From: an uncultured delta proteobacterium
GTDB taxonomy: Bacteria; Myxococcota; Myxococcia; SLRQ01
Direction: 5' to 3'
NCBI GenBank assembly: GCA_963727485.1
Contig: CAVSGM010000003.1
Coordinates: forward strand, 352,001-416,000
DNA: 64,000 nucleotides
Part shown: positions 14,302-50,709 of the stretch, piece by piece
Layout of the letters: each line of letters starts with the position of its first letter
Position numbering within the stretch: the first letter of the stretch is position 1
The notes under the pieces: model-generated
What the model was told of the DNA's origin: nothing
What the model saw: the letters and a program-made list of their open reading frames with translations, nothing else
Database searches by the model: none
Made by a program: the position numbers and the translations under genes

Positions 14302-15511
14302 ATGCGACTCTATCGAGCCCCGAAGGTCTTCGTCGGTACCGGCGCGCCTCCCCTCGACGACGGCGCGGTCCTGGTCGGCGACGACGGGCGCATCGCCGCG
14401 GTGGGCCCGGCCCGGGAGGTGAGCGCCCCGGGGGCCGAGGTCATCGAGACCCAGGGCACCCTGATGCCCGGCCTCGTCGACTGCCACGTCCACCTCTGCC
14501 TCTCCGGGGGCACCGACCCCGGGGGCGAGGTCCAGGTCACGCCGCTGCCGGTGGTGGCGCTCCAGGGCGCGGCGGCGCTCCGGGCCCACCTCGCCGCCGG
14601 CGTGACCACCGTCCGCGACCTGGGATCGGTGGGGGGCATCGCCGTCGCCCTGGGGCGGCTGGTCGACGCCGGGCGCCTCCCCGGGCCCCGGGTGATCGCC
14701 GCCGGCCGCGCCCTGTGCATCACCGGCGGCCACGGGGCCTTCATCGGCCGGGAGGTCGACGGGCCCTGGGAGGTGGCCGAGGCGGTACGCTCGGAGATGA
14801 AGGCCGGGGCCACCTGCATCAAGGTCATCGCCACCGGGGGGATGATGACGCCGGGGGTCGAGCCCGGCGCGCCCCAGATGACCCTGGAGGAGATGCGCGC
14901 CGCGGTCTTTGAGGCCACCCGCGCCGGGCGCCGGGTCGCGGCCCACGCCCAGGGATTCCGCGGGCATCGCCGACGCCCTGCGCGCCGGGGTCGCCACCAT
15001 CGAGCACGGGATCTTCATCGACGCCGACTGCCTCACCCTCTTCCAGGAGACCGGCGCGTATCTCGTGCCCACCTTCAGCGCCACCGACGGCATCCTCTCG
15101 GGGAAGGATTGCGGGGTCCCGGACTTCATCGTCGCCAAGATGGAGAAGGCGGCGGGGAGCCACGTGGCCTCGTTCCAGAAGGCGCTGGGCGCCGGGGTCC
15201 ACGTGGCCGCGGGCACCGACGGGGGCACGCCGCTGAACCCCCACGGGAACCTCGCCCACGAGATCCAGGCGATGGTGCGCTACGGGATGCCCGTCCTCGA
15301 GGCCCTGGCGGCGGCCACCGGCCACGCCGCCGCGGCGCTCGGGCGCGACGACGTGGGCGTGCTGGCCCCCGGCCGCCGGGCGGACCTGGTGGCCCTGGAC
15401 GGCGATCCGGTGGACGACGTCGAGGCGGTGGAGGCGGTCACCTGGGTGATGAAGGACGGCCGGGTCTTCGAGCCCGCCGACCTCACCCCCGCAGAAGGGA
15501 TGCTCCTGTGA
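14302..15511 (+). CDS. Metal-dependent amidohydrolase (Xaa-Pro dipeptidase-like subgroup); one +1 frameshift at ~14956
   Basis: PGLVDCHVH, IKVIATGG, AAHAQG, TIEHG, GTDGG, G.LAPGRRADLV. The two halves join if GATTC at 14954-14958 is GATC. Confidence 0.85.
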
Positions 15512-16551
15512 GCGACACCATGAAGGCGGCCTACCTCACGGGCCACGGCGGCCTCGAGGTCCTTGCGTATGGCGACCTGCCGGTCCCCGAGCCCGGCCCC
15601 GGCGAGGCGCGGGTGGCGGTCAGGGCGGTGGCGCTCAACCACCTCGACGTCTTCGTGCGCCGGGGGTGGAAGGGCCTGAAGCTCGCCTTCCCCCACGTGG
15701 TGGGCTCGGACGCCGCCGGGGTGGTGGACGCGGTGGGCCCCGGGGTCGAGGGCCTGGCCGTGGGCGACGCGGTGGTCCTCGCCGCCGGGTGGAGCTGCGG
15801 CCGGTGCCGCGCCTGCCTCGCGGGCAACGAGCACCTCTGCCGGCAGTACCATCTGTTCGGCGAGCACCGCGGCGGCGCCGGGGCCGGGCGCTTCGTGGCC
15901 CCGGCGCGAAACCTGCTCCCCAAGCCAGACGGGCTCTCCTTCGTGGACGCGGCGGCGGTGGGCGTCGCCTACCTCACCGCCTGGCACATGCTGGTGACCC
16001 GGGCGCAGGTGCGCCTGGGCGAGACGGTGCTGGTCCACGGGGCCTCGGCGGGGGTGAGCGTCGCCGGGATCCGAATCGCCCGGCGCCTGGGGGCGCGGGT
16101 CATCGCCACCACCAGCAGCCCCCAGAAGGCCGCCCGGGCCCAGGAGCTCGGCGCCGACGCGGTGATCGACTACACCCGCGAGGACCTCAAGGCGCGGCTC
16201 AAGGCCCTGGCGCCCGAGGGGGTGGAGGTGGTCTTCGAGCACCCCGGCGCCGCCACCTTCGACCTCTCGGTGAAGGCGCTGGCCCAGGGCGGGCGGGTGG
16301 TGACCTGCGGGGCCACCACCGGGCCCGAGGTGGCCCTCGACCTGCGGCGCCTGTTCATGAAGCAGGCGTCGCTGCTGGGCTCGACCATGGGCACCCGCGC
16401 CGAGCTGATGGCGGTCTTGGACGAGGTCGCCGCCGGGAACCTCCGGGTCGTGGTCGACCGGGTGCTGCCCCTCTCGGAGATCCACGAAGGCCACCGGGCC
16501 CTGGAGTCCGGGGCGCACTTCGGCAAGATCGTCCTCGAGCCGCCGGCCTAG
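15508..16551 (+). CDS. Zinc-binding dehydrogenase / quinone oxidoreductase (MDR family)
   Basis: ALNHLD, GSDAAG, structural-Zn CGRCRAC..C, VHGASAGVS, GKIVL C-terminus. Confidence 0.88.
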   Translation: MSDTMKAAYLTGHGGLEVLAYGDLPVPEPGPGEARVAVRAVALNHLDVFVRRGWKGLKLAFPHVVGSDAAGVVDAVGPGVEGLAVGDAVVLAAGWSCGRCRACLAGNEHLCRQYHLFGEHRGGAGAGRFVAPARNLLPKPDGLSFVDAAAVGVAYLTAWHMLVTRAQVRLGETVLVHGASAGVSVAGIRIARRLGARVIATTSSPQKAARAQELGADAVIDYTREDLKARLKALAPEGVEVVFEHPGAATFDLSVKALAQGGRVVTCGATTGPEVALDLRRLFMKQASLLGSTMGTRAELMAVLDEVAAGNLRVVVDRVLPLSEIHEGHRALESGAHFGKIVLEPPA

Positions 16552-34169: not shown

Positions 34170-35640
34170 ATGGACGCCATGGAGACACGCAGCTTCAAGC
34201 ACTTCGTTGGCGGCGAGTGGGTCGGCTCCGAGAAGACCCGCGACGTCGTCTACCCCTGGGACGGCTCGGTGGTGGGGACGGTGCAGCTCGCCGGCCCCGA
34301 GTCGGTGGAGCGGGCCATCGAGGCGGCGGTCCACGTGGCGGACGAGCTGGCGCGCACCCCGGCGCACCGGCGCGCCGCCTGGCTCGAGGGGATCGTCGAC
34401 GGGATCCGCGCGCGGCGCGACACGCTCGTCGACCTCATCATCCACGAGGGCGGCAAGCCCCGGCGCTTCGCCGAGGGCGAGGTGGCCCGGGCGATCCAGA
34501 CCTTCACCCTCGGCGTCGAGGCGGCGCGATCGCTGGGCGGCGAGGTGATCCCCATCGACGCCGTCCCCAGCGGCGAGGGGCGGATTGGGATCACCCGGCG
34601 CTTCCCCAAGGGGCCGGTGGCGGCGATCACGCCCTTCAACTTTCCCTTGAACCTGGTGGCCCACAAGGTGGCGCCGGCGCTCGCCGCCGGGTGCCCCCTG
34701 GTCCTCAAGCCCGCCGACGAGACCCCGCTCTCGAGCCTGGTGCTCGCCGAGATCGCCGAGGAGGCCGGCGTCCCGGCCGGGGCCTTCAACGTGATCCCCT
34801 GCGAGGTCGCCGACGCGGCGCCGCTCACCGAGGATCGGCGGATCCAGGTGCTCACCTTCACCGGCAGCGCCCGGGTGGGCTGGCAGCTCAAGCGCCAGGC
34901 GGGCAAGAAGCGGGTCCTCCTCGAGCTTGGGGGCAACGCCGCCGCCATCGTCCACGCCGACGCCGACCTCGACCACGCCGTCGAGCGCTGCGCCTACGGC
35001 GCCTTCGCCCACGCCGGGCAGGTGTGCATCTCGGTGCAGCGCGTCTACGTGCACCGCTCCGTCTATGAGCCCTTCGTCGACGCGCTCACGGCCGCGGCGA
35101 AGGACACCCCCGTCGGCGATCCCGACGACGGCGCCACGGTGTGCGGGCCGCTGCGGGCGGACCAGGACGCCGACCGCCTCGAGCGGTGGATCACCGAGGC
35201 CCGGGACGCCGGCGCCACCATCCGCTGCGGCGGCGAGCGCCACGGCCGGATCGACCCCCCCGACGGTGATCACCGGCGCCGACCCCAAGCTGCCCATCTC
35301 CTGCCAGGAGGCCTTCGGGCCGGTGGTGGTCGTCTACCCCTACGACGACCTCGACGCGGCGATTGCCGAGGTCAACGACTCGGACTACGGGCTCCAGGCG
35401 GGGATCTTCACCAACGACCTGGCCGCGACCTTCCGCGCCTTCGAGCGCCTCGCCGTCGGCGGGGTGATCCACAACGACGTGCCGACGTTCCGCGTGGACC
35501 ACATGCCCTACGGCGGGGTGAAGGACTCGGGGATGGGGCGCGAGGGCGTGCGCTACGCCATCGACGACCTCACCGAGCTCCGGGTGCTGGTGCTGAAGCC
35601 CCGGGCCAGGCCCGGGGCGGTCAGCGTGCTCAGGGGCTGA
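34170..35640 (+). CDS. Aldehyde dehydrogenase; one +1 frameshift at ~35255
   Basis: TPFNFP, FTGS, LELGGN, GQVCIS; then EAFGP, YGLQAG, PYGGVKDSG.GREG in the next frame. Confidence 0.9.
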
Positions 35641-36871
35641 CGTCGCCGGTGGCGTTGCCGGAGTAGGTGTTTCCCGCTTCCTGCAGGGCGCCCTTGGTGT
35701 CACCGGGGTTGGCCGGATGCAGGAACACGCCCCAGCCCGCGCTGTCGCGGACGGTGCTGCTGTTCATCACCAGGCGGCTGCCCGAGTCCACGCCGATGTT
35801 GGTGGGCTCCGAGCCGTCGCTGAGGACGGTGGGCCCGCCGCCGTAGGCGATCTCGGCGAAGCCCAGCTCGTTGGCGGTGGAGGCGGTGGCGAAGTTGATC
35901 CCCCGCCAGGAGCCCGCGGTCTCCACCACGCCGGTGATCACGATGGGGGCCGCGGCGGTGCCCACCGCGTGGAAGGAGCCATCCCCCACGGGGTTGCCGA
36001 TGTGGATCGCCGAGTCGCGCGCCATCGCGAGCTGGGCGCCGGCCTCCACCACCACGTTGCCCGAGATGCCGACGTCCCCGGTCACCTGGTAGGGCACGTC
36101 CAGGGCGTGGATCGTGAGGTCGTCACCCACCGGCCCGCCAACGATGCTCACATACGGGGCCGCGGTGTTGCCCGCGAAGGTGGACGCGCCGTCGGGGACG
36201 CCGAGCATCGCGGCCGGCAACACCATGGCGGCGCCGGCGTTGCCCTCAAACGTGTTTCCCGAGAAGGCGGGGATCTGCGGGGACTCGCCGGCCAGGGTGG
36301 TCACCTGGATGCCGGCGGCCGCGCCGTCCGTGAAGGTGGCGTTGGCGATCTTGAGGCGGCCGCTGAAGCTGATGCGCACGCTGGCCGGGTCCTCGTAGCC
36401 GACGCCCATGGAGCCACTCCCGGCGTCCGCCACCGTCACCCGGTTCAGCTCGTTCGCGGTCGACGCGGAGCCGAAGGCGATGCCCTTCCAGAACCCGGCG
36501 CTCTGCGTCTTGCCGCGGAAGACGATGGGCGCGGCGGCGCTCCCGACCGCGGAGAGCGACCCCTGGCCGGTGGCGTTGCCGACGATGAGGCAACCATCCC
36601 GCTGGAACTCGATGACCACCCCCGGATCCACCACCAGGTTGGCGCTGACGGCGAGGCAGCCGGAGACCTCGTAGTCCGGGACGGTCCCCGGGCGGAGGTC
36701 GGTGAGCGTGGTGTCGGTGTCGATGTTGGCGTCGATGAGCTGGGGGCCCGACGGAGTGCCGGGGCCACCGGGCCCGCAACCGGTGCTCCAGGCGCCGATC
36801 AGAATCGTGGCGCCGAGCCGGGCCACCTGCCTCAGACGCGCACGCACGTGTCCTGCGGATGAAAGCTTCAT
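35630..36871 (-). CDS. Lipoprotein with right-handed parallel beta-helix-like repeats, internally duplicated
   Basis: Lipobox STGC; two copies of G.GS..AVG.AAAPIV..G....AG.W.GI.F..ASTANEL. Confidence 0.75.
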   Translation of the reverse strand: MKLSSAGHVRARLRQVARLGATILIGAWSTGCGPGGPGTPSGPQLIDANIDTDTTLTDLRPGTVPDYEVSGCLAVSANLVVDPGVVIEFQRDGCLIVGNATGQGSLSAVGSAAAPIVFRGKTQSAGFWKGIAFGSASTANELNRVTVADAGSGSMGVGYEDPASVRISFSGRLKIANATFTDGAAAGIQVTTLAGESPQIPAFSGNTFEGNAGAAMVLPAAMLGVPDGASTFAGNTAAPYVSIVGGPVGDDLTIHALDVPYQVTGDVGISGNVVVEAGAQLAMARDSAIHIGNPVGDGSFHAVGTAAAPIVITGVVETAGSWRGINFATASTANELGFAEIAYGGGPTVLSDGSEPTNIGVDSGSRLVMNSSTVRDSAGWGVFLHPANPGDTKGALQEAGNTYSGNATGDVSP

Positions 36872-38139: not shown

Positions 38140-38385
38140 GCCGACCGGGCCCGCGCTCGCCGCCGGCGACGATCCCCGTGACATCGTAGAGGCACAGGGA
38201 GCACTGGTCGAGCACACCGGGTTCACCGGCGGTGCAGGCGGCGGCGTTGGTGAGGGTGAGGTCGAAGCTCTTCGCGGTCTCGTCGCCGTTGGCAAAGACG
38301 AGGTTGTTGAAGAGCTCGAAGGACTGGGCCCTCGGCGCGTCGTGCTCTACCCCGTGGCCTGTGTTGCTGGCGATGAGGTCGTACT
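38140..38385 (-). pseudogene. Fragment of a beta-helix-type secreted protein
   Basis: Startless coding-like stretch LIASNTGHGVEHDAPRAQSFELFNNLVFANG...CTAGEPGVLDQCSLCLYD with GC3 bias. Confidence 0.4.
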
Positions 38386-38761
38386 CGCGGTGGAGGCCGG
38401 TCGGCTCACCTACAGCGGGGACGTCTCCACGCTCCATGGTTCCTTCGTTGCGTCTGACACGGTGGGCCTCAACGGCTCCTCGGTGACGCTCAAGTGGGTA
38501 ATGGGGGACGCCTTCAATCAGTACGCAACGACGGTGTATCTGCGCACCCACACCACAAGCGACCCGAACCCCGAGCTCAAGGGCGTGGCGACCCTCACCG
38601 GGAAGCTCTCCGGCGCCACCCTGAGCCTTCACGGCGTGGACACCTACACCGATGCGAGCACCGGCAAGGTCCTGGAGACCGACGACTGGCCGAGGCTGAA
38701 GCTGTTTCGGGTAACCGCGTGCCCGTTCACCGGGGCGCCGCCGTGGCCTCGGCATGGGTGA
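38380..38761 (+). pseudogene. 5'-truncated paralog of the downstream lipoprotein
   Basis: LTYSG...VTLKWVM.DAF..YAT...SDP...TG.L...TLSLH....TDASTGKVLET aligns with the C-terminal two-thirds of 38758-39348; no signal peptide; TGA overlaps the next GTG. Confidence 0.55.
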
Positions 38762-39348
38762 CGTGGCGCGTGCACCGGCTCGCGGGCGTAGTCCTCGTCC
38801 TCGCCATCGCCTCCTGCGGCAGCGGCCCCACCGGCTTCGACGGCTTCTGGTGGGCGTCGTACCAGGACAACGGCGGCCGGGCCTTGTGGCTTGCCGCCGG
38901 CCAGGGCCGCAGCGGGCGCGTCTGGACCATGGCGGCCTTCCCCCTCGACTTCGCCCACACCGAGACCGTCGCCAACTGCCGGAACCAGTGGGCGCAGCAT
39001 GGCGCCGAGGTCACGTACACGGGCGCGCCCGACTTCATCGAGGCCCAAGGGGAGGTGGCCGAGTCCCGGCTCACCGTCTCCCAGGGCGTCGCTACCCTCA
39101 CCTGGAAGATGAGCCAGGCGTTCGAGGACCAGGCCACGCAGGCGTGGCTCGCCGACCACCCCTCGGCGGACCCCAGCCTGAAGGTGCACACCAAGCTGAG
39201 CGCCACCGGGCTGCTCCCGGACCCCAACACCCTGGACCTCCACCTCGAGGTCCTGGTCACCGACGCCCGCACCGGCAACGTGCTCACCACCGAGGCCTCC
39301 GACTGGCGGTTCCACCGCCTCGGGGCCTGTGCCCTCTCTCCCATGTGA
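38758..39348 (+). CDS. Lipoprotein of unknown function
   Basis: Signal peptide with lipobox IASC; beta-rich; GTGA overlap with the upstream paralog. Confidence 0.7.
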   Translation: MTWRVHRLAGVVLVLAIASCGSGPTGFDGFWWASYQDNGGRALWLAAGQGRSGRVWTMAAFPLDFAHTETVANCRNQWAQHGAEVTYTGAPDFIEAQGEVAESRLTVSQGVATLTWKMSQAFEDQATQAWLADHPSADPSLKVHTKLSATGLLPDPNTLDLHLEVLVTDARTGNVLTTEASDWRFHRLGACALSPM

Positions 39349-39454
39349 GCGGGTATCCGGGCGACCCCGCGCCGGTGCCTCTCGCCCGCGTGTCCCGCGC
39401 CCGAGCGTGCCCTACCTTGAAGCCGATGGGGGGGCGCCGGGGACCGGGCCCGGC

Positions 39455-39483
39455 TTGACGCGGTGCATCATCCTGCCTAGCGT
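39455..39483 (+). promoter_or_regulatory. sigma70-type promoter with overlapping palindrome (EMC operon 1)
   Basis: TTGACG-N17-TAGCGT; contains TGACGC-GGT-GCATCA. Confidence 0.7.
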
Positions 39484-39547
39484 ACCCGGCACCGCGATCG
39501 CCGATTGGGAGCGGTCAGCGCCAGCCACCAGACCAACGGAGGAACCA

Positions 39548-40702
39548 ATGGCCTACAAGGCAGACGCCTGGGTGCTCTACGCCGGCAAGTCGGACACCCC
39601 CGAGCGGGCGAAGCTCGTCCGGGAGACCATCGAGATCGACGCGCTGAAGGCGAACGAGGTCCTCGCCGAGCCCCTCTACGGGTGCTGGGAGGGGAACATG
39701 GGCCACGCCCTCGATCGCACGCCGGTCGACATCTGCAAGCAGCGCGGCGAGGAGAAGGTGGTCCTCGGCAACGCCGGGGTGGTGCGCATCAAGGAGGTGG
39801 GCAAGGACGTGAAGAACGTCGAGCCCGGCCAGCGCGCCATCATCTTCTGCAACGGCGAGGAGGACGAGTGGGGCTACCCCAAGAAGATCATGGGCTTCGA
39901 CGCGCCCGGGTCCATGGGGTGCCTCGCCACCAAGATGAAGATGACCGAGCGCCAGGTCATCCCCATCCCCGACGACACCAAGCACTCGCTGGCCCAGTGG
40001 GCGGCGTTCTCGCTTCGCTACGTCACCGCCTGGAGCAACTGGGAGCTCGCCCACGGGACCTTCCGGCTCCTGGTGAGCTGGGACGAGATGGCCTCGCCGC
40101 ATGTGTGGGGCTGGGGCGGCGGGGTGACGCTGGCCGAGCTCGACCTGGCGCGCCGCCACGGGTGCCGCACGGTGATGCTCTCGGGGAACGAGAAGCGCCT
40201 CCAGACCATCGCCAAGGTCGGGGTGACGCCCCTGAACCGCAAGCAGTGGGGGCCCCTGTCCTTCGACGAGGCGCGCTACAAGGCCGACCCCGAGTACAAG
40301 AAGGCGTACCGGGAGGCCGAGCAGGGCTTCCTCGAGGCGGTCACCGAGAAGACCAAGGGCCGGATGGTCCAGATCTTCGTCGACTACGTGGGTGGCCCGG
40401 TCTACCGGCCGACCCTCAAGGCGCTCTCCCGCGAGGGCATCATCACCACCGCCGGCTGGAAGGAGGGGATGAAGCTGTGGGACCTCCGGGCGGTGGAGTG
40501 CATCGAGCGCCACCAGCACATCCACACCCACTACGCCCGCTACCCCCAGGGGTGGAAGGCGGTGGCCTACGCCGAGGCCAACGGGTGGATGCCGCTGGTC
40601 GACGATTGGGTCTACGGCTTCGACGAGGTCCCCGAGCTCGCCGAGAACTACGACTGCGGGAAGGTCGACTGCTTCCCCACCTTCTCCATCAACGCCGAGT
40701 AG
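39548..40702 (+). CDS. Divergent crotonyl-CoA carboxylase/reductase-like MDR enzyme
   Basis: MDR layout without zinc ligands. CWEGN, IMGFD, YVTAW, VWGWGGG and HTHYA match by eye the Ccr motifs VNYN, IWGFE, STAY, IWGASGG and GSHFA. First gene of an operon with mcl- and mcd-like genes. Confidence 0.65.
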   Translation: MAYKADAWVLYAGKSDTPERAKLVRETIEIDALKANEVLAEPLYGCWEGNMGHALDRTPVDICKQRGEEKVVLGNAGVVRIKEVGKDVKNVEPGQRAIIFCNGEEDEWGYPKKIMGFDAPGSMGCLATKMKMTERQVIPIPDDTKHSLAQWAAFSLRYVTAWSNWELAHGTFRLLVSWDEMASPHVWGWGGGVTLAELDLARRHGCRTVMLSGNEKRLQTIAKVGVTPLNRKQWGPLSFDEARYKADPEYKKAYREAEQGFLEAVTEKTKGRMVQIFVDYVGGPVYRPTLKALSREGIITTAGWKEGMKLWDLRAVECIERHQHIHTHYARYPQGWKAVAYAEANGWMPLVDDWVYGFDEVPELAENYDCGKVDCFPTFSINAE

Positions 40703-40724
40703 TCACGAGATTCCAGGAGACGTC

Positions 40725-41867
40725 ATGACCGACTTCACCGAGGTCCGGGAGCAGATCCGCGCCGCCCAGAAGATCCACCGCGCCGAGGCGGAGATGATCC
40801 GGGGCGCCAAGGTGCCCTACTACCGCCGCGGGGAGATGAGCATCCCGGGGTTCAAGATGAAGGCCGGGGGCGACCCGGAGAAGGACGCCCGTCAGACCTC
40901 GCTCAAGCTCATGGGCAAGGCGGCGACGCTGCCGGTGGACTTCTTCTTCTACGACCTCGAGGACGCCTCCCCGGACAACCCCGACTTCAAGCCCTTTGCC
41001 CGGCGCTTCGTGATCGAGGCCTTCCAGGAGCTTCAGTTCGGCGACCGGGTGCGGGCGTTTCGGCCCAACAACATCCGCACCGCCTACTTCGAGGACGACC
41101 TGGTGGAGGTGGTCGGGGCCATCGGCGACAAGCTCGACGCCATCGTGCTCCCCAAGAGCGAGAACGCCGAGGAGGTCGCCGACGTGCAGAAGGCGCTGCG
41201 GGCGATCCAGAAGGCGGCCGGCCGCGACCACCGCATCGCCATCGAGGTGCTCATCGAGTCGCCCAAGGCCTTCACCCAGATCGACCGCATCGCCGCCCTC
41301 GACGACGTCTCGGCGCTGATCTTCGGGGCCTGGGACTTCGCCCGGACCATCGGCGGCCGGGTGGAGCCGGAGACCTGGCTCGCCGACCAGGGGACCGCGC
41401 GCCAGATGCTCCCCATCGTCGCCGCCGCCCATGGCAAGGACGCCGTCGACGCGGTGACCGCGACGCTCCCCATCCGCGCCAAGGACCCGAACGACACCGA
41501 GGCCGCCGAGCGGCACCGCCGGGCCCTGGAGCTGGCCCGCCGCGACGCCGACGAGGCCCGGCGCATCGGCTACGCCGCCAAGTGGATCCTCCACCCGGAC
41601 CAGATCGCGCCCATCCAGGGGGCCTGGACCCCGGAGCAAGGCGTGGCCCAGGCGGCCCTGAAGCTGGTGGCCACCTACGCCCGCGCCGCGGAGACCGGCT
41701 CCGGCGCCGAGGTCCACGGAGAGCAGCTCGCCGACAAGGCGGTGGTCGGGACCGAGTGGTGGAACGTGCGCGCGGCGCTCAAGGCCGGGGTCCTCACGGA
41801 CGCCGACGTGCAGGCCACCGGCTACACCCTCGACAAGCTCGAGCGCACCGTGAGGACCCGGGACTGA
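40725..41867 (+). CDS. CitE/HpcH-family CoA-ester lyase, likely malyl-CoA/beta-methylmalyl-CoA lyase
   Basis: DLEDA, RPN, LPK, IES, G..DF, KWILHPDQI and a C-terminal Asp (LADKA); EMC context. Confidence 0.75.
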   Translation: MTDFTEVREQIRAAQKIHRAEAEMIRGAKVPYYRRGEMSIPGFKMKAGGDPEKDARQTSLKLMGKAATLPVDFFFYDLEDASPDNPDFKPFARRFVIEAFQELQFGDRVRAFRPNNIRTAYFEDDLVEVVGAIGDKLDAIVLPKSENAEEVADVQKALRAIQKAAGRDHRIAIEVLIESPKAFTQIDRIAALDDVSALIFGAWDFARTIGGRVEPETWLADQGTARQMLPIVAAAHGKDAVDAVTATLPIRAKDPNDTEAAERHRRALELARRDADEARRIGYAAKWILHPDQIAPIQGAWTPEQGVAQAALKLVATYARAAETGSGAEVHGEQLADKAVVGTEWWNVRAALKAGVLTDADVQATGYTLDKLERTVRTRD

Positions 41868-43492
41868 TGGCCGCCACCGTGGCGAAGGCCGAGGCGGCGC
41901 TGAAGCGCGCCCGGGAGGTCCTGGATCGGGTCGCGACGCATCTGGCGAAGCAGGTCGACGGCGGCGGCCGGGTCTCGACCAAGAAGCTCGACGCCATCCA
42001 GCCCGAGGCCTTCGGCTTTGCCCGGCGCCTCGCCGAGCTCACCGCCGCCGAGGCGCTGCTCGCCTGGGGGAAGGCCCACGGCGACCACGAGCAGGCCCTG
42101 GCCATCACCTACGCCGCCACCGTGAGCGCCGAGCTGGCCAGGTGGCTGCGGTTCCAGGAGGCCGAGCTCGGCGCGGTTGCCGCCACCCTCGACGCCGACG
42201 CGTCCTTCGTCACCGCGGCCCTGTCCACCGCGCGCCTGGTGTCGCTGGGCGGCGCGCTCCTCGATCGCGACGCCGACCCCGAGGGCGCCCGGGGCCTGAC
42301 CGAGGACCACCTGCCCATCCAGCGCGAGTTCGCCCGCTTCGCCGACGAGCAGGTGGCCCCGGTGGCCGAAGAGATCCACCGCCACGACCGGCTCATCCCC
42401 GAGCCGCTCTTGAAGGCCATGGGCGAGCTGGGGGTCTTCGGGATCTCGGTCCCCGAGGCCTACGGCGGCACCTACATCGACCACACCACCATGATCGTCG
42501 CCACCGAGGAGCTGTCCCGGGCGTCGCTGGGGGCCGGGGGCTCGGTGATCACCCGCCCGGAGATCGCCGCCAAGGCGGTGCTCGCCGGGGGCACCGAGGC
42601 GCAGAAGCAGACGTGGCTCCCCCGCTTCGCCTCCGGGGAGAAGATTGTCAGCGTCGCCGTCACCGAGCCCGACGCCGGCTCCGACGTCGCCCGGGTGAAG
42701 GTCACCGCCCGGAAGGTCGACGGGGGCTACGCCATCAGCGGCGAGAAGACCTGGTGCACCTTCGCGGGCCGCGCCGACGTCTTCGTGCTCCTGGCGCGTA
42801 CCGGCAGCGCCGACGAGGGCCACCGGGGCCTCACCCTCTTCCTGGTGGAGAAGCCCGGGCAGCCCGCGGGAGAGGGCGACGAGTACCACTTCGTCCACGC
42901 CCAGGACGGCGGCGGCCGCTGCGAGGGCCGCGCCATCCCCACCGTGGGCTACCGGGGGATGCACAGCTTCTCGGTGAGCTTCGAGGACTACTTCGTCCCC
43001 GACGAGAACCGCCTCGGCGACGAGGGCCGTGGCTTCTACCTCCAGATGAAGGGCTTCGAGGGCGGGCGCATCCAGACCGCGGCCCGGGCCGTGGGGGTGA
43101 TGGAGGCCGCCTTCCGCGCCGCGCTCCAGTACGCCCGCGACCGCAAGGTCTTCGGCCAGGCGCTCGCCGACTACGCCCTGACCCGGGTGAAGCTGGTGGA
43201 GATGGCCACGCGCATCCAGGCCGGCCGCCAGCTCGCCTACGTGGTCGGCGCCCTGATGGACGACGAGCAGGGCGCCATGGAGGCGTCCCTGGTGAAGTTC
43301 CTCGCCTGCCGCGACGCCGAGTGGGTGACCCGGGAGGCGATGCAGCTCCACGGGGGCATGGGCTACTCCGAGGAGTACCCGGTCTCGCGCTACTGGCAGG
43401 ACGCCCGGGTGCTCTCGATCTTCGAGGGCGCCGAGGAGGTGCTCGGCCTGCTGGTCATCGCCCGGCAGGCCCTGGGCGCGAAGCTCGGCTGA
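41867..43492 (+). CDS. mcd: (2S)-methylsuccinyl-CoA dehydrogenase-like acyl-CoA dehydrogenase
   Basis: 541 aa with the ~140-aa N-terminal extension of Mcd; EELSR, TRPEIA, TEPDAGSD, GYRGM, RIQTAARA, DARVLSIFEGA. Confidence 0.8.
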   Translation: MAATVAKAEAALKRAREVLDRVATHLAKQVDGGGRVSTKKLDAIQPEAFGFARRLAELTAAEALLAWGKAHGDHEQALAITYAATVSAELARWLRFQEAELGAVAATLDADASFVTAALSTARLVSLGGALLDRDADPEGARGLTEDHLPIQREFARFADEQVAPVAEEIHRHDRLIPEPLLKAMGELGVFGISVPEAYGGTYIDHTTMIVATEELSRASLGAGGSVITRPEIAAKAVLAGGTEAQKQTWLPRFASGEKIVSVAVTEPDAGSDVARVKVTARKVDGGYAISGEKTWCTFAGRADVFVLLARTGSADEGHRGLTLFLVEKPGQPAGEGDEYHFVHAQDGGGRCEGRAIPTVGYRGMHSFSVSFEDYFVPDENRLGDEGRGFYLQMKGFEGGRIQTAARAVGVMEAAFRAALQYARDRKVFGQALADYALTRVKLVEMATRIQAGRQLAYVVGALMDDEQGAMEASLVKFLACRDAEWVTREAMQLHGGMGYSEEYPVSRYWQDARVLSIFEGAEEVLGLLVIARQALGAKLG

Positions 43493-44276
43493 GCGCCCGG
43501 GCCGAGCGGACGCAGGCCCGGGGCCGGCCGTTCAGGAGCCGCGACCCCTCGAGCCACCTGGGGTCGGGGGCGTAGGCGAAGAGCAGTCCCCCGTGCTTCA
43601 GGTCGTCGATGAGCAGGCGCGAGACGTCGTCGTCGACCGCCGGGCAGCCCCAGCTGCGCCCCAGCTCCCCGTGGGCCTCGATGAAGTCCTCGCTCACGTA
43701 CCAGGCGCCGTGGACCACGATCCGCCGTCGCGCCGCCTGGTCGTTGAAGCCGGGGTCGAGCCCCCGGAGCGCCAGCGAGTACCCGTGGCGTCCCTCGTAG
43801 GTCGCCGTGGCGAGGTAGAGCCCCAGGCTCGTCTGGAGGCTGTGCTCCCGGTTCGAGAACCGGGTGGGCGTGAGCTCCCCGCTCCCCCGCCCGTGGGCCA
43901 CCCGCAGGTGCAGGAGCAGCCGCCGGCGCACCAGGTCGAAGACCCACATCCGCCGCCGGGTCGACGGCAGCCCGTAGTCGATGACCGCCAGGGTGGGCCG
44001 GGGCGCCAGCCCCTCGGCGCGCACGTGGCGCACCGCGCGCAGGGCCAGGCGCAGGACCGCCGGCTTCAGCCCCGGCGCCTGGGCCAGGAGCGCCGGCGCC
44101 AGGGTGGCCCAGTCGATGCGCCGGTCCACCCGCACCCGCTCCGCGTGGGTCCAGCGTTGCGTCGGGGCGCCGGCGACCGCGGCCCGCCCCCCAAGGCCCA
44201 CCATTCCGCACACGAGCGCGGCGATCGCGAGCCGCAGCAAGGTCCGGGGGAGGTGGCGATCCCGAACCCGGCTCAA
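43455..44276 (-). CDS. Murein L,D-transpeptidase (YkuD_2 type)
   Basis: IDY.LPS...R.WV.D, VAHGRGSG, FSN...S..TSLG, IVVHGA.YV, GRSWGCPAV. Confidence 0.88.
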   Translation of the reverse strand: MSRVRDRHLPRTLLRLAIAALVCGMVGLGGRAAVAGAPTQRWTHAERVRVDRRIDWATLAPALLAQAPGLKPAVLRLALRAVRHVRAEGLAPRPTLAVIDYGLPSTRRRMWVFDLVRRRLLLHLRVAHGRGSGELTPTRFSNREHSLQTSLGLYLATATYEGRHGYSLALRGLDPGFNDQAARRRIVVHGAWYVSEDFIEAHGELGRSWGCPAVDDDVSRLLIDDLKHGGLLFAYAPDPRWLEGSRLLNGRPRACVRSARALSRASRPGPAGR

Positions 44277-44974
44277 GGCCCCCCCGAGCCGGGCGCCGCC
44301 GGCGGGCGGTGGGTCGCCGCGGGGAGGTCCCGGGGGGCCGGGGACGGCGTGACCTCGGGCGCCGGGCCGGTGAGGATGAGGCCGAGGCCCACCAGGAGCA
44401 TCCACAGGACCACGTCGCCGGTGACCGCCCGGTTCAGGTGCTTCCTGGCCTCGGCGGCCCCGGCGGCGAGGCGGTCGTTCACCACCGCCGCCACCGGGGA
44501 GAAGTCGGCGATCCCCCGGCGGGGCAAGAGGAAGATCTGGCCGTCCTCGTCGAGGAGGTAGATGGCCTCGGGGGCGGAGACCGCGAAGCGCATCCGCGCC
44601 CAGGGGCGCTCGAAGCGCCGGCCGCCGCCGTCCTCGACCACCAGGCCGAGGACGTCGACGGTGGCCCGGATGCGTCGCTCGTCCTCGGAGAGCATCGCGA
44701 ACACCCGGCGGCTCAGGGCGTGGCGCCTGGCGTAGAAGAAGTAGACCGTCAGCAGGCCCAGGCCCATGGCCAAGGCGACGATGAGCGGCCCCTGCACCGC
44801 CCAGCGATCGACGGCCAGCCGGGTCATGGCCCAGAGGATGATCCAGATGGCCACCGGCCACCGGAGACGCTCGGCGCGGACGCCGGGCATCGCCGTCATC
44901 GACTGGTAGAGGTCGTCCTCGGTGACCTCGTACTCGAGGACCAGGGGCGCCCCGAGAATCCACCGACCCGCTGG

Positions 44975-44978
<4 letters not shown>
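44273..44978 (-). CDS. YcxB-like membrane protein; one +1 frameshift at ~44958
   Basis: ATG overlaps the upstream stop; removing one base at GAATC 44956-44960 gives MTSGSVDLGAPLVLEYEVTEDDL; two TMs, then W..........YL........LPRR. Confidence 0.65.
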
Positions 44979-46792
<1,814 letters not shown>

Positions 46793-46899
46793 GAGGACCT
46801 CCTGAGTGCGGAAAAACGGCGCCCAGGAGCGCCGCGGACGGGGGGTCTCTATCATAGGAGCACGGGTTCGGCGAGCACGCCGGCGGGGGCGGGACCGCG

Positions 46900-46928
46900 T
46901 TGACGCGCTGCGTAACGCTGTCTATCGT
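46900..46928 (+). promoter_or_regulatory. sigma70-type promoter with overlapping palindrome (EMC operon 2)
   Basis: TTGACG-N17-TATCGT; contains TGACGC-GCT-GCGTAA; 22/29 identical to 39455-39483. Confidence 0.7.
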
Positions 46929-46991
46929 CCGCCTCACGCCGCCCGGCCGAGGGGCCGGCGCCTGGGAACCGCGAACGGAGGGGAGACGACG

Positions 46992-48023
46992 ATGGCCACC
47001 GAGGACAAGGGCTGGCGGGGGAACTTCTTCGAGGACTTCGAGCTGGGGCAGCGGATCGTCTGCCCCACGCCGCGGCGGCTCACCGAGGGCGACGTGGCCG
47101 CCTACCTGGCGCTCACCGGCGACCGGACCCCGGGGTTCTGCGGGGCCGACGCGGTGATCCATCCGCTCATCGTCTTCCACGCGGTGATGGGCCAGACCGT
47201 GCGCCCCATCTCGCTGAACGCCCGGGCGAACCTCGGCTACGCGGGGATGGTCTTCCGCCGCCCGGTGCGCGTGGGCGCCACCCTCACCACCACCGTGGAG
47301 ATCCTCGGCCTCAAGGAGAACTCCAGCAGGAAGACCGGCATCGTGTGGGTGCGCACCGAGGGGCGCGACGACGACGGTGAGAGGGTCCTCGACTACGTGC
47401 GCTGGGTGATGGTCCACAAGCGCGGCGAGGCGGAGACGAGGTGGCTCGCCGAGCCGGTGGTCCCCGAGCTCCCCAAGGTGGTGGCGCCGGCCGAGCTGCC
47501 CACCGGCCACCTCGCCCTGCCCACCGCCGAGGCCACCGGCGGCCGGTTCTTCTTCGAGGACTACGAAGAGGGCGAGCGCATCCACCACGTGGACGGGCAG
47601 ACGGTGAACCACTCGGACCACATGAGCTTCACCCGCCTGTTCCAGAACAGCGCCAAGGTCCACTTCGACGCCCGGCTCACCGGCGGCGACCCCCTGGTCT
47701 ACGGCGGCTACCCCATCTCGCTGGGCTACGCCCAGGCGTTCAACGGCCTGGAGAACCGGGTGGGCCTCGCCGCCATCAACGGCGGCACCCACGCGAACCC
47801 GGTCCACGCCGGCGACACCCTCTACAGCTTCACCGACGTGGTCGCCAAGGACGACCTCGGCGACGCGCCGGTCGGCGCCCTGCGCTGCCGGCTCCTGGTG
47901 GTGAAGAACCTCGACCTCGCCGAGCGCCCCGACTTCGATCCCAGGCCCGGGGGCAAGCACGACCCGGCGGTGGTCCTCGATCTCGACCTCTGGGAGCGGG
48001 TGGTGAAGCAGGGGGCCGCCTGA
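46992..48023 (+). CDS. mch: Mesaconyl-C1-CoA hydratase (double MaoC/hot-dog)
   Basis: Two FFED(F/Y) repeats, ISLNA.ANLGYA, ENSS.KTGIVWV, QN.AKVHFD, LVYGG, INGG.H.NP..AGDT. Confidence 0.88.
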   Translation: MATEDKGWRGNFFEDFELGQRIVCPTPRRLTEGDVAAYLALTGDRTPGFCGADAVIHPLIVFHAVMGQTVRPISLNARANLGYAGMVFRRPVRVGATLTTTVEILGLKENSSRKTGIVWVRTEGRDDDGERVLDYVRWVMVHKRGEAETRWLAEPVVPELPKVVAPAELPTGHLALPTAEATGGRFFFEDYEEGERIHHVDGQTVNHSDHMSFTRLFQNSAKVHFDARLTGGDPLVYGGYPISLGYAQAFNGLENRVGLAAINGGTHANPVHAGDTLYSFTDVVAKDDLGDAPVGALRCRLLVVKNLDLAERPDFDPRPGGKHDPAVVLDLDLWERVVKQGAA

Positions 48024-49933
48024 TGCGCCTCGGCGACCGGCCTCCCTGGATCGTGCGCACCTACGCGGGCTTCGGCGACGCCGAGGCCACCAACGCGCGC
48101 TACCGGGCGAACCTCGACCGGGGCCAGCGGGGGCTCTCGGTGGCCTTCGATCTGCCCACCCAGAACGGCTACGACGCCGACGACCCGCTCGCCGCCGGCG
48201 AGGTCGGGGGCACCGGGGTCGCCATCAGCCACCTCGGCGATCTGGCGCGGCTCTTCGAGGGCATCCCGCTGGGCGAGGTGAACACCTCGATGACCATCAA
48301 CGCCACCGCCCCCTGGCTCTACGCCCTCTACCTGGCGCTGGCGGAGCAGGAGGGGGTGCCCTGGGGGGTGCTCCGGGGCACCACCCAGAACGACCTGATC
48401 AAGGAGTTCGTGGCCCGGGGCACCTACGTCTTCGACCCGGAGACCAGCCTGCGCCTCTCCCGGGACCTGACCACCTTCGCGGTGACGCACACCCCCAAGT
48501 GGAACCCGGTGAACGCCTGCGGCTACCACTACATGGAGTCGGGGGCGACGCCGGCGGAGGAGGTGGGCTTCGCCATCGGCGGGGCGGTGCTCCTCCTCGA
48601 CGCCATCCGCCCCAGGCTCGAGGCCGAGGCCTTCACCCGGGTGGTGGCCCGGATCAGCTTCTTCGTGAACAGCGGCATCGAGCTGGTCCCGGAGATCGCC
48701 AAGCTCCGGGCCTACCGCAAGCTGTGGCAGCGCACCTGCGAAGCGCGCTACGGGGTGCCCGACGTGCCGTTTCGCGCCGGTTGCCAGGTGCGGTCGCTGA
48801 CCCTGACCGCCGCCGAGCCCGAGGTGAACATCGTGCGCATCGCCTACGAGGCCCTGCCCGCGGTGCTCTCGGCCTCGGCCCGGGTGGGGGCGCTGCAGCT
48901 CCCGGGGTTCCGCGAGGCCCTGCAGCTGCCCACCGAGAGCGAGCAGGTGCTCTCCCTGCGCACCCAGCAGGTCCTGATGTACGAGACCGGCCTCGGCGAC
49001 TGGGGCGACATCTTCGAGGGCTCCACCATCGTCGAGCGTCTCACCGACGAGACCGTCGCCGCCGCCGCCGCGGTGGTGGAGAAGATGGTCGGGCTCGGCT
49101 ACGCCGGATCCATCCCCTACCTCTCCCGGCGGCTCACCGAGGGGCTCGTCTCCTGGCGGCGGAAGGTCGACGCCGGGGAGCAGGTGTGGATCGGGGTCAA
49201 CGCCTTCGAGGACCCGGTGGACCTGGTGCCCACCGGAGGCGCCGAGCGCGAGGGCGCCGACCCCGAGGCGGTGAGCCGGCACCTCGAGCGCCTCGCGGCC
49301 CACCGGCGCACCCGCGACGCCGCCCGGGTCGAGGCCGCCCGCGCCGCCCTCGCCGAGGCGGTGCGCGCCGGTGACAACGTCCTCCCGGCGTCCATCGAGC
49401 TGGCCCGGGCCGGGGGCACCACCGGCGAGTGGACCGCCACCATCGAGGCGGTGGTGGGGACCCGCTACGCGGCGCCGCTCGGGGCCGAGGGCGGCGGCGG
49501 CGAGGACCTGGGCGTCCCCCGGGCCCCGCGTCCCCTGCGGGTGGTGCTCGCCAAGAGCGGCCTCGACGGCCACGTGAACGCGGTGAAGCTCCTCGCCGCG
49601 GCCTGCAGCCAGGCGGGGATGGAGGTCGTCTACACCGGCCTCAAGCAGACCCCCGAGGCCATCGTCGCCACCGCCCTCCAGGAGGACGCGGACCTGGTGG
49701 GCATCTCCAGCCTCTCCGGGAGCCACCTGCACATCGCCCGGGAGGTGATGCGGCTGCTCGGGGAGAAGGGCGCCACCGACCTCCCGGTGATCCTCGGGGG
49801 CATCGTCCCCGAGGCCGACCGCGCGCCCCTCGAGGCCATGGGCATCCGCGCGGTCTTCACCCCCGCCGACGCCCGGGTCGGGGAGATTGTCCAGCGGATC
49901 ATCGATCTCGCCCTCGCCGCCCGCCCGGGATGA
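48023..49933 (+). CDS. ecm: Ethylmalonyl-CoA mutase (MeaA/Ecm), B12-dependent
   Basis: PW..RTYAG, GLSVAFDLPTQ.GYD, NTSMTINATA, GTTQND..KE; Ecm-type Gly (FRAGCQV) and Pro (LQLP) where methylmalonyl-CoA mutases have His/Asn; C-terminal DGH and SSLSGSH B12 domain. Confidence 0.85.
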   Translation: MRLGDRPPWIVRTYAGFGDAEATNARYRANLDRGQRGLSVAFDLPTQNGYDADDPLAAGEVGGTGVAISHLGDLARLFEGIPLGEVNTSMTINATAPWLYALYLALAEQEGVPWGVLRGTTQNDLIKEFVARGTYVFDPETSLRLSRDLTTFAVTHTPKWNPVNACGYHYMESGATPAEEVGFAIGGAVLLLDAIRPRLEAEAFTRVVARISFFVNSGIELVPEIAKLRAYRKLWQRTCEARYGVPDVPFRAGCQVRSLTLTAAEPEVNIVRIAYEALPAVLSASARVGALQLPGFREALQLPTESEQVLSLRTQQVLMYETGLGDWGDIFEGSTIVERLTDETVAAAAAVVEKMVGLGYAGSIPYLSRRLTEGLVSWRRKVDAGEQVWIGVNAFEDPVDLVPTGGAEREGADPEAVSRHLERLAAHRRTRDAARVEAARAALAEAVRAGDNVLPASIELARAGGTTGEWTATIEAVVGTRYAAPLGAEGGGGEDLGVPRAPRPLRVVLAKSGLDGHVNAVKLLAAACSQAGMEVVYTGLKQTPEAIVATALQEDADLVGISSLSGSHLHIAREVMRLLGEKGATDLPVILGGIVPEADRAPLEAMGIRAVFTPADARVGEIVQRIIDLALAARPG

Positions 49934-49942
49934 CCGGCGCCC

Positions 49943-50038
49943 TCCGGCGCCCTGGCCGGCGGCACCGGACGGCCCCGGGGCGGCGGGACATGACGGCGCC
50001 GGGGGAGCGGAACCTGACGTCCCCGGGGCGGCGGGACT
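49943..50038 (+). repeat. Three to four imperfect 24-bp tandem repeats, intergenic
   Basis: Units 49967-49990, 49991-50014 and 50015-50038 (first and third 21/24 identical), plus a weaker unit at 49943-49966. Confidence 0.6.
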
Positions 50039-50049
50039 ATGCTCCGGCC

Positions 50050-50709
50050 ATGCGCCGCACCCGCCTGCCCCTCGTCGCCCTCGCCGCCGCCCTCGGTCTC
50101 GCCTCCACCGCCTGCGGGGTCCAGAGCGCCCCCACCACCGGCGACCTCACCCTCCACTACACCTTCGACCAGCAGACCTGCGACGCCGCCGGGGTCACCG
50201 AGATCGACATCACCGTGGACGGGGTGTCGGTCAGCGACGGGGCGACCCTCAAGGTCGACTGCGCCACCTACGCCGCCGGCGCCGCCATCCAGGCCCTGTC
50301 GCTGGGCACCTACTCGGTGGAGATCCAGGGCCTCGACGGGAGCGGGAACGTCCTCTACGACCTCGGCGCCCAGACCGTGGACCTCAAGGGCGGGAGCAAC
50401 GTGTTCAGCTTCGACCTCCCGGCGGTGACCGGGAAGCTGACCCTCTACTGGCTCTTCGCCGGCAGCTCCGCCTGCGGCCAGGTGGCCCAGGTCCACGTGG
50501 TGGTGCTCGATCCCCAGGGCAGCAGCTTCGACGACCAGACCTACCCCTGCACCGACGCCGGGATCGTGTACGACGCCGCGGCCGCCGGGACCTACACCGT
50601 GAGCATGCAGGGCCTCGACAGCACCAACCGGGTCCTCTACAGCGCCTCGGACAAGACGGTGCAGGTCCTCGCCGGCCAGGACAACCAGTACCAGATCCAG
50701 CTCAACTGA
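50050..50709 (+). CDS. Lipoprotein with two tandem disulfide-containing beta-sandwich-like domains
   Basis: Lipobox STAC; two copies of G.LTL...F....C...V......C...G......GTY.V..QGLD....VLY. Confidence 0.78.
   Translation: MRRTRLPLVALAAALGLASTACGVQSAPTTGDLTLHYTFDQQTCDAAGVTEIDITVDGVSVSDGATLKVDCATYAAGAAIQALSLGTYSVEIQGLDGSGNVLYDLGAQTVDLKGGSNVFSFDLPAVTGKLTLYWLFAGSSACGQVAQVHVVVLDPQGSSFDDQTYPCTDAGIVYDAAAAGTYTVSMQGLDSTNRVLYSASDKTVQVLAGQDNQYQIQLN

Follow-up and report, generated by a model that had tools for sequence, protein, structure and literature searches.

The gene for crotonyl-CoA carboxylase/reductase (Ccr) is the marker of the ethylmalonyl-CoA (EMC) pathway, and the enoyl-CoA carboxylases/reductases (ECRs) drive synthetic CO2-fixation cycles and are, to our knowledge, the fastest carboxylases known. 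In this report, we examine a gene at positions 39548..40702 (+ strand) of a 64,000-nucleotide stretch of DNA, hereafter “the window” (positions 352,001 to 416,000 of contig CAVSGM010000003.1, assembly GCA_963727485.1), from an uncultured delta proteobacterium assigned to the Myxococcota. Its product of 384 amino acids (aa) is a noncanonical relative of Ccr whose gene heads other EMC pathway genes. We put at about 80%, from sequence comparisons, the probability that this protein is a crotonyl-CoA carboxylase/reductase that replaces Ccr in the EMC pathway of uncultured Myxococcota and of genomes labelled Bacteroidota. The family membership, residue conservation, gene order, and co-occurrence on which this proposal is built are direct observations.

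The closest described relatives are IcuL, TgaD, and Leu10, which Xie et al. (bioRxiv 10.1101/2022.11.22.517467; a journal version dated 2023 is cited in PMC12391302) present as a family of noncanonical carboxylases/reductases (CCRs) that are ~380 aa long and 18% identical to CinF. According to that preprint, the three share 49 to 53% identity (48.6% between IcuL and TgaD) and reductively carboxylate C6 to C8 N-acetylcysteamine (SNAC) esters in vitro, also yielding reduced products. TgaD is described there as using NADH as well as NADPH and as accepting only an octenoyl substrate. Because the 11-member network in the same report was drawn only from proteins inside predicted biosynthetic clusters, it was blind to members that reside in metabolic operons such as the one examined here. 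A TgaD homologue has been noted in the polyoxypeptin cluster (PMC3943440), and an Enhygromyxa homologue has been proposed as a source of ethylmalonyl-CoA for polyketides (PMC6226438).

Family membership and active site

The open reading frame (ORF) begins with ATG, is preceded by a Shine-Dalgarno-like GGAGG (39538..39542, + strand), has zero internal stops, and maintains a third-codon-position G+C content (GC3) of 0.98 uniformly along its length. Its product (P0001) matches the Pfam models ADH_N and ADH_zinc_N and nothing else. Zinc-dependent alcohol dehydrogenases of the medium-chain dehydrogenase/reductase (MDR) superfamily carry a catalytic Cys/His(GHE)/Cys set and a structural four-Cys lobe. 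In the window protein, the GHE position reads LGNAG when aligned with ILGHEAAG of 5k1s, there is no four-Cys lobe, and the zinc ligands are absent. Judged by these residues, the protein is a zinc-less MDR and not a zinc-dependent alcohol dehydrogenase.

Over its full length, the window protein shares 64% identity with IcuL (244/384) and 46% with TgaD (176/385; P0280, UniRef100_D7P5Z6). The sequence used as IcuL is SOCE836_041200 (P0337), which closes the icu cluster according to the locus range in Xie et al.; the IcuL that was assayed comes from another strain. We took it as IcuL because it ends the icu cluster and because its 49% identity to TgaD matches the 48.6% reported. Structural alignment gives the window protein 18% identity to CinF (4a0s/4a10). 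A homologue search returned 1423 sequences at E ≤ 0.001 among 3925 candidates, and at E ≤ 1e-30 there are 78 clusters (50% identity). On this sequence evidence, the window protein belongs to the IcuL-like CCR family and is not a canonical Ccr. The initial annotation had proposed a separate carboxylase subfamily occupying the ccr slot; the protein is indeed separate and does occupy that slot, but the notion of an undescribed subfamily was rejected once TgaD and IcuL, for which carboxylation has been shown, were identified as relatives.

The family is poorly visible to the standard hidden Markov model (HMM) for Ccr, as that annotation anticipated. TIGR01751 is the best NCBIfam match of the window protein, near full length, at 51.9 bits, far under the cut-off of 378.55; a control ccrA scores 625 bits, whereas IcuL (40.8 bits) and TgaD (48.6 bits) both fall under the cut-off, and the best E-value over 108 family members is 8.8e-22. 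Kinship with Ccr also remains hidden when the PDB is searched with the single sequence (3krt, E 0.13), and is exposed by a profile built from 108 homologues, for which Ccr structures rank first (4gi2, E 2.7e-12, then 3krt and 3hzz). The profile aligns over its full length with the Methylorubrum extorquens Ccr 4gi2 and with Streptomyces Ccrs, and a joint alignment with nine canonical Ccrs yields the same pocket columns. In addition, the top 10 structural matches of an AlphaFold model of the window protein (predicted local distance difference test score, 95.7) are all ECRs (Z 36.9 to 40.4, 345 to 366 residues aligned), and the whole fold matches the Kitasatospora setae Ccr 6OWE with Z 38.1 and a root-mean-square deviation of 2.4 Å over 360 residues.

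In the sequence alignment, with the K. setae residues numbered along chain 6OWE, residues N50, F117, D118, and H328 of the window protein correspond to N81, F170, E171, and H365 of the Ccr CO2 pocket. This agrees with the earlier by-eye assignment, in which Asn (CWEGN), Phe (MGF), and His (HTHYA) were said to be kept, Glu replaced by Asp (GFD), and the nucleotide loop to read WGWGGG; the motifs CWEGN, MGFD, WGWGGG, and HTHYA are all found in the protein. Among the 120 closest homologues, the Asn is present in 119 (with one gap), and the F/Y, Asp, and His positions are kept in all 120. Among 150 listed distant representatives, the 39 that are full length (330 to 500 aa) retain Asn in 35 and the F/Y, Asp, and His residues in 38 each. 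Within these alignments, the pocket residues are kept beyond chance.

Glu occupies the E171 column in 2 of 100 family rows and in nine of nine canonical Ccr rows. The change to Asp presents no obstacle to carboxylation because IcuL and TgaD, both of which read YDAP, also carry Asp at this position, and because a K. setae Ccr carrying E171A still gives 97% carboxylated product, with a 17-fold lower kcat (PMC6628652). In the same report, carboxylated product amounts to 100% for F170Y, 19% for N81L, and 17% for F170A. The Glu-to-Asp change is thus a family trait rather than an open problem. Two loci that carry Glu in this position (L085 and L086, reading GYEAP) are natural controls for the Asp/Glu question.

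These residues bear directly on the idea that the window enzyme is a plain enoyl-CoA reductase that converts crotonyl-CoA to butyryl-CoA, with a biotin carboxylase acting on butyryl-CoA to supply ethylmalonyl-CoA. The reduced products formed by IcuL, Leu10, and TgaD in vitro, the replacement of Glu171, and the three carboxyltransferase genes of the host genome would be compatible with such an arrangement. However, the Asn, the aromatic residue, and the His are conserved throughout, the same Asp occurs in carboxylases that have been assayed, and no biotin carboxylase gene was recognised, by cluster identity only, beside the carboxylase gene in the operon loci described below. We therefore regard a plain reductase as quite improbable.

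A separate set of distant homologues (L099, P0199, P0202, and P0267; 21 to 29% identity) carries EHN and HTHYE motifs and sits between the window family and canonical Ccr. These possibly constitute a third ECR-like group that would be useful for rooting.

The residues that line the acyl pocket are informative with regard to chain length. The triple change C146P/I169A/F373G opens Caulobacter Ccr to large substrates (PMC8360864), and alignment together with residue spacing places these columns at C101, I114, and Y329 of the window protein. The C-I-Y triad is present in all 34 aligned operon rows (the window and 33 loci, with L027 left out because its sequence is broken), in 4 of 20 rows adjacent to polyketide synthase (PKS) or nonribosomal peptide synthetase (NRPS) genes, and in one of nine rows from FabH-type clusters; canonical Ccrs read C-I-F in eight of nine cases. 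At the level of sequence, the triad fits a crotonyl-sized pocket in the operon enzymes.

Gene neighbourhood and the proposed pathway

As initially annotated, the carboxylase gene leads an mcl-mcd operon. The mcl gene (40725..41867, + strand) starts 22 nt downstream and encodes a divergent 380-aa CitE-like protein (PF03328) that is likely a beta-methylmalyl-CoA/malyl-CoA lyase, its top PDB matches being malyl-CoA lyases (4l9y, E 2.5e-23; 5ugr, E 6.9e-21). The start of mcd (41867..43492, + strand) overlaps the mcl stop (TGATG). Its 541-aa product, which has an N-terminal extension, resembles (2S)-methylsuccinyl-CoA dehydrogenase (8ciw, E 1.6e-138; 6es9, E 7.1e-88), with the next acyl-CoA dehydrogenase at 1.2e-69.

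Two further genes, absent from the earlier description, lie 3.5 kb beyond mcl-mcd, such that mcl, mcd, mch, and ecm are all in the window. The mch gene (46992..48023, + strand) encodes a 343-aa mesaconyl-CoA hydratase-like protein (PF19315; PDB 8hgn, E 7.1e-81, and 4e3e, E 2.2e-78), and its stop is overlapped (TGATG) by ecm (48023..49933, + strand), which encodes a 636-aa ethylmalonyl-CoA mutase-like protein with a fused B12 domain. The best plasmid matches of the latter are MeaA-type proteins (43 to 45%), above ScpA (36 to 37%). Ecm reportedly bears a Gly/Pro signature, said to have been described by Erb and colleagues in 2008; here, the signature was compared only with annotated MeaA and ScpA and with the other mutases of the genome. 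The window mutase carries G254 and P295, as does MeaA, in positions where ScpA and the two other mutases of the genome carry H/N, and neither residue varies among the 20 operon mutases compared.

The two halves of the cluster are split by three genes on the opposite strand (43455..46855, - strand) that encode, by Pfam, a YkuD_2 transpeptidase-like protein (~43455-44198), a YcxB-like membrane protein (44273-44899), and a long-chain acyl-CoA ligase (44975-46855). No homologue of the ligase occupies the same place in the 34 operon loci, and the three genes are probably unrelated to the pathway. A weak sigma-70-like site upstream of mch (46900..46928, + strand), a consensus match only, was the single hit of a promoter scan across 39300-50200 (shuffle mean 0.2, SD 0.6). 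Immediately 5′ of the carboxylase gene are two adjoining lipoprotein-like ORFs (38342-38761 and 38754-39348, + strand) that look similar to each other and have no Pfam match.

Comparison of the best 80 of 102 genome loci reveals that, in 34 loci, a same-strand mcl or mcd gene begins no more than 560 nt downstream. The fetched flanks of these 34 operon loci hold mcd in 31, ecm in 23, mcl in 15, and mch in 13. The operon records are labelled Myxococcota (14), Bacteroidota (10), and Pseudomonadota (6), with four lacking a label, and the six Pseudomonadota-labelled rows group with Myxococcota rows in the tree. Three records (L040, L048, and L058) are titled “uncultured Enterobacteriaceae,” and their proteins group with Myxococcota-labelled rows; these labels look like placeholders.

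Among the remaining 46 loci, PKS/NRPS genes adjoin 20 (Pfam confirms 14 of these, 11 of which have ketosynthase domains), FabH-type clusters contain 10 (one checked by Pfam), and in eight less than 600 nt of contig is left downstream, with slight overlap among these sets. This abundance of PKS-adjacent relatives, the status of IcuL as the closest characterised relative, and a PKS-like region in the host genome (C2 near 412-417 kb) might suggest that the window enzyme supplies alkylmalonyl extender units to a PKS elsewhere, as an IcuL-like enzyme would, and that its mcl-mcd neighbourhood is incidental. However, 34 loci, with identities as low as ~52%, preserve the place of the gene ahead of mcl/mcd, the acyl pocket has the small triad, and no PKS adjoins the gene in the window. 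An extender-unit role is thus very improbable.

The PKS- and FabH-linked loci have features of their own. In eight loci (L050-L052, L055, L063, L064, L067, and L073), a conserved Myxococcaceae/Archangium cluster lies downstream of the match, in the order CCR family member, hexapeptide acyltransferase, FabH, acyl carrier protein, short-chain dehydrogenase/reductase, FabH, and AMP-ligase. This order suggests that the product is an alkylmalonyl-derived small lipid, possibly one resembling a beta-lactone. In seven others (L047, L053, L060, L062, and L069, which are labelled Pyrinomonadaceae, plus L059 and L065), the CCR gene is directly 5′ of a fatty acyl-AMP ligase-PKS gene, and the A/S-V/I-G pocket of these CCRs suggests long chains. 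The gene that follows in L047 encodes a fusion of luciferase-like, dehydratase, carrier, and condensation domains.

The content of the host genome, which is 93% complete, accords with replacement of Ccr. No canonical Ccr exceeds the TIGR01751 cut-off there, and the same is true for all 34 operon genomes, most of which are metagenome-assembled genomes (MAGs). The best TIGR01751 match in the host genome (window 15568-16530; 109.6 + 66.3 bits) was rejected as a Ccr because it has a four-Cys lobe and is an MDR of the zinc type. This match belongs to a 749-aa ORF (14302-16551, + strand) in which an amidohydrolase (Xaa-Pro dipeptidase-like) is joined to the zinc-type MDR by an apparent frameshift, with GC3 falling to ~0.5 mid-ORF. 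An aldehyde dehydrogenase gene (34170-35666, + strand) has another apparent frameshift near its 3′ end, and the assembly seems to carry indel errors. Isocitrate lyase is found neither in the host genome nor in the 34 operon genomes (0/35). The host genome does encode six thiolases above cut-off, an hbd-crotonase-acyl-CoA dehydrogenase cluster (recognised by eye from translations), and two mutases besides ecm.

Based on these observations and on analogy with Ccr, we predict the following route. Thiolase, Hbd, and crotonase would generate crotonyl-CoA, which the window enzyme would convert with CO2 and NAD(P)H to ethylmalonyl-CoA, coupling reduction to carboxylation. Hydride transfer to C3 would create an enolate, CO2 would be anchored by N50, F117 would keep water out, and H328 and D118, possibly aided by the invariant E48, would hold an ordered water. 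Acyl chains longer than about four carbons would not fit the C101/I114/Y329 pocket. The resulting (2S)-ethylmalonyl-CoA would pass through an epimerase and Ecm to methylsuccinyl-CoA, through Mcd to mesaconyl-CoA, and through Mch to beta-methylmalyl-CoA, which Mcl would cleave to glyoxylate and propionyl-CoA; Pcc and Mcm would then yield succinyl-CoA. The route as a whole would serve acetyl-CoA assimilation. Our assignments of substrate (crotonyl-CoA), stereochemistry, cofactor, and physiological role are predictions.

Several points weigh against this proposal. Most operon genomes are incomplete MAGs, and the operon members are related, such that the 34 of 34 occurrences of C-I-Y are not 34 independent cases; the triad also occurs in 21 of 36 unassigned rows. 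Orphan genes, including L001 (72% identical) and Bdellovibrionota-labelled members, encode C-I-Y enzymes with no EMC or PKS neighbours, and operon-type Ecm was not found in the five orphan-member genomes searched. The fold margin of ECRs over alcohol dehydrogenases, which reach Z 36.3 with at most 337 residues aligned, is small. The family has ~10 fewer residues between C101 and I114 and lacks the E151/N157 loop of K. setae Ccr, which has been tied to fast catalysis in primary-metabolism ECRs (PMC9413435). Xie et al. describe IcuL as nearly inactive on a C5 ester and stress strict chain-length specificity (10.1101/2022.11.22.517467). An epimerase exceeds the cut-off in only 17 of 35 genomes, most of the others having a weak full-length match, and the sole candidate in the host genome scores 49 bits versus a cut-off of 115. 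Finally, the host genome has no malate synthase and no second CitE-like gene, mcl being its only PF03328 gene, and among the 34 operon genomes a close Mch is present in 17, an operon-type Mcl in 15, both in nine, and neither in 11.

Three side observations pertain to these points. The host epimerase candidate (G000 C1:585592-586041, - strand) is a 150-aa protein with a vicinal oxygen chelate fold that may be a divergent methylmalonyl-CoA epimerase, and similar weak full-length matches to the epimerase model occur in ~15 operon genomes without a canonical epimerase. In three Mch-less genomes (L134-L136; match about 1500-2450), double-hotdog proteins with 28% identity to the window Mch are candidate replacement hydratases unlinked to the operon. 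The orphan members noted above, which keep the small C-I-Y pocket but are flanked by no EMC or PKS genes, are L028, L032-L036, L054, and L001.

One possibility that would accommodate the missing steps is that a short-chain reductive carboxylase feeds Ecm and Mcd, but that the cluster is no acetate-assimilation cycle. Its role would instead be the assimilation of C4/C5 acyl-CoAs, the carboxylation of acrylyl-CoA, or a shunt through methylsuccinate/mesaconate that leaves by a different exit. The 11 genomes with neither a close Mch nor an operon-type Mcl point this way, as do the failure to find malate synthase or a malyl-CoA thioesterase (Mcl2) in the host genome and, among 17 Mcl-less genomes, the presence of malate synthase above cut-off in just two. 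However, Mch and Mcl occur together in the host genome and in the nine others, an anaplerotic route is needed because isocitrate lyase was found in none of the 35 genomes, and a PF19315 search of 5 of the 17 Mch-less genomes revealed a distant double-hotdog (Mch-like) gene in all five (28% identity to the window Mch in the three compared). We consider a purpose other than acetate assimilation unlikely, and acetyl-CoA assimilation through a Ccr replacement remains our preferred reading.

Phylogeny and the direction of recruitment

In a tree of 109 rows that includes nine canonical Ccrs, all 34 operon rows fall within a 52-row clade (Shimodaira-Hasegawa-like approximate likelihood ratio test, SH-aLRT, 95) that also contains PKS-linked rows, and the canonical Ccrs are split off by a long branch (SH-aLRT 100). 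A more careful tree of 53 rows, consisting of a chosen subset plus IcuL and TgaD and rooted on the TgaD group, places IcuL and the window protein in a shared 16-row clade (100/100). This clade is nested in one of 21 rows (100/98), and the five additional rows are all linked to operons. A monophyletic group made up of the operon-linked enzymes alone is rejected (approximately unbiased test, p-AU 3e-8; 20 rows against 33) because IcuL and PKS-linked rows fall among them. Outside the operon lineage are TgaD and many of the PKS-linked members. Support for the deeper nodes is weak, and a very long branch leads to the outgroup.

Because IcuL nests inside the operon-linked lineage, its own lineage was likely recruited from a primary-metabolic operon enzyme, as far as these sequences can tell. 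The initial annotation had spoken of recruitment to primary metabolism; the place in the ccr slot holds, but the nesting of the IcuL branch points in the opposite direction, out of primary metabolism. We judge the chances to be slightly better than even for a broader reading, in which these genes represent a second, independently assembled EMC pathway of uncultured Myxococcota and Bacteroidota-labelled lineages, which uses an IcuL-type carboxylase and its own Ecm clade, and in which this carboxylase is ancestral to IcuL and several PKS extender-unit carboxylases by pocket opening (Ile114 to Ala/Met). It would have a compact, crotonyl-specific, possibly NADH-accepting scaffold.

A survey of 301 genomes of the window's phylum found the IcuL/TgaD-type family in 28, canonical Ccr in 23, and both in only one (G522); no conclusion rests on G455, an unpublished genome among the 23. 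The Ecm search was too loose (it hit 252 of the 301 genomes, largely through other mutases), and a score gap was used instead (>1000 versus at most 551 bits). By this measure, the operon-type Ecm clade occurs in only two of the 301 genomes, both with the IcuL/TgaD-type family and without canonical Ccr. The operon is thus broad across lineages and rare among well-assembled genomes. Several canonical ccr genes in other Myxococcota are separated from a mutase gene by no more than a few hundred bases, and these differ from the window operon in both the Ccr family and the mutase clade.

Significance and comparison with described carboxylases

A near-complete pathway with ccr (K14446) has been reported for one Myxococcota group (PMC10576062). 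A literature search, with most subscription journals outside its scope, found no paper that places IcuL/TgaD-type CCRs in the EMC pathway. The enzyme family is known, as is the pathway; the combination appears to be undescribed. If our proposal is correct, surveys that rely on ccr overlook the pathway, together with its CO2 co-assimilation, in uncultured bacteria, both predatory and aquatic or sediment-dwelling, that lack isocitrate lyase. Moreover, the IcuL/TgaD family, so far described only in polyketide clusters, would acquire a branch in primary metabolism, and IcuL a likely origin. Because TgaD uses both NADH and NADPH but only an octenoyl substrate, a natural crotonyl-specific member is worth assaying. 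An Asp-containing pocket without the E151/N157 loop would also be a test case for CO2 control.

Relative to canonical Ccr (EC 1.3.1.85, TIGR01751; K. setae 6OWE and M. extorquens 4GI2), the window protein is alike in fold, in the Asn, aromatic, and His residues of the CO2 pocket, in its C-I-aromatic acyl pocket, and in the linkage of its gene with ecm, mcd, mch, and mcl. It differs in being only 17 to 19% identical and 40 to 60 aa shorter, in carrying Asp for Glu171, E48 for Asn79, N75 for Ser119, M51 for Thr82, and GWGGG for GASGG, and in lacking the E151/N157 loop and scoring far under the HMM cut-off. With the IcuL-like noncanonical CCRs of Xie et al., namely IcuL (icumazole), TgaD (thuggacin), Leu10 (leupyrrin), AsmB6, and polyoxypeptin Orf5, it shares a length of ~380 aa, an identity of 16 to 18% to canonical ECR structures, the GCWEGN, [YF]DAP, GWGGG, and THYA motifs, and low TIGR01751 scores. 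Those enzymes lie in biosynthetic clusters and act on C6 to C8 chains, whereas the window gene heads EMC pathway genes, and the acyl pockets differ in sequence: C-I-Y in the window protein, C-A-Y in IcuL, and G-A-Y in TgaD.

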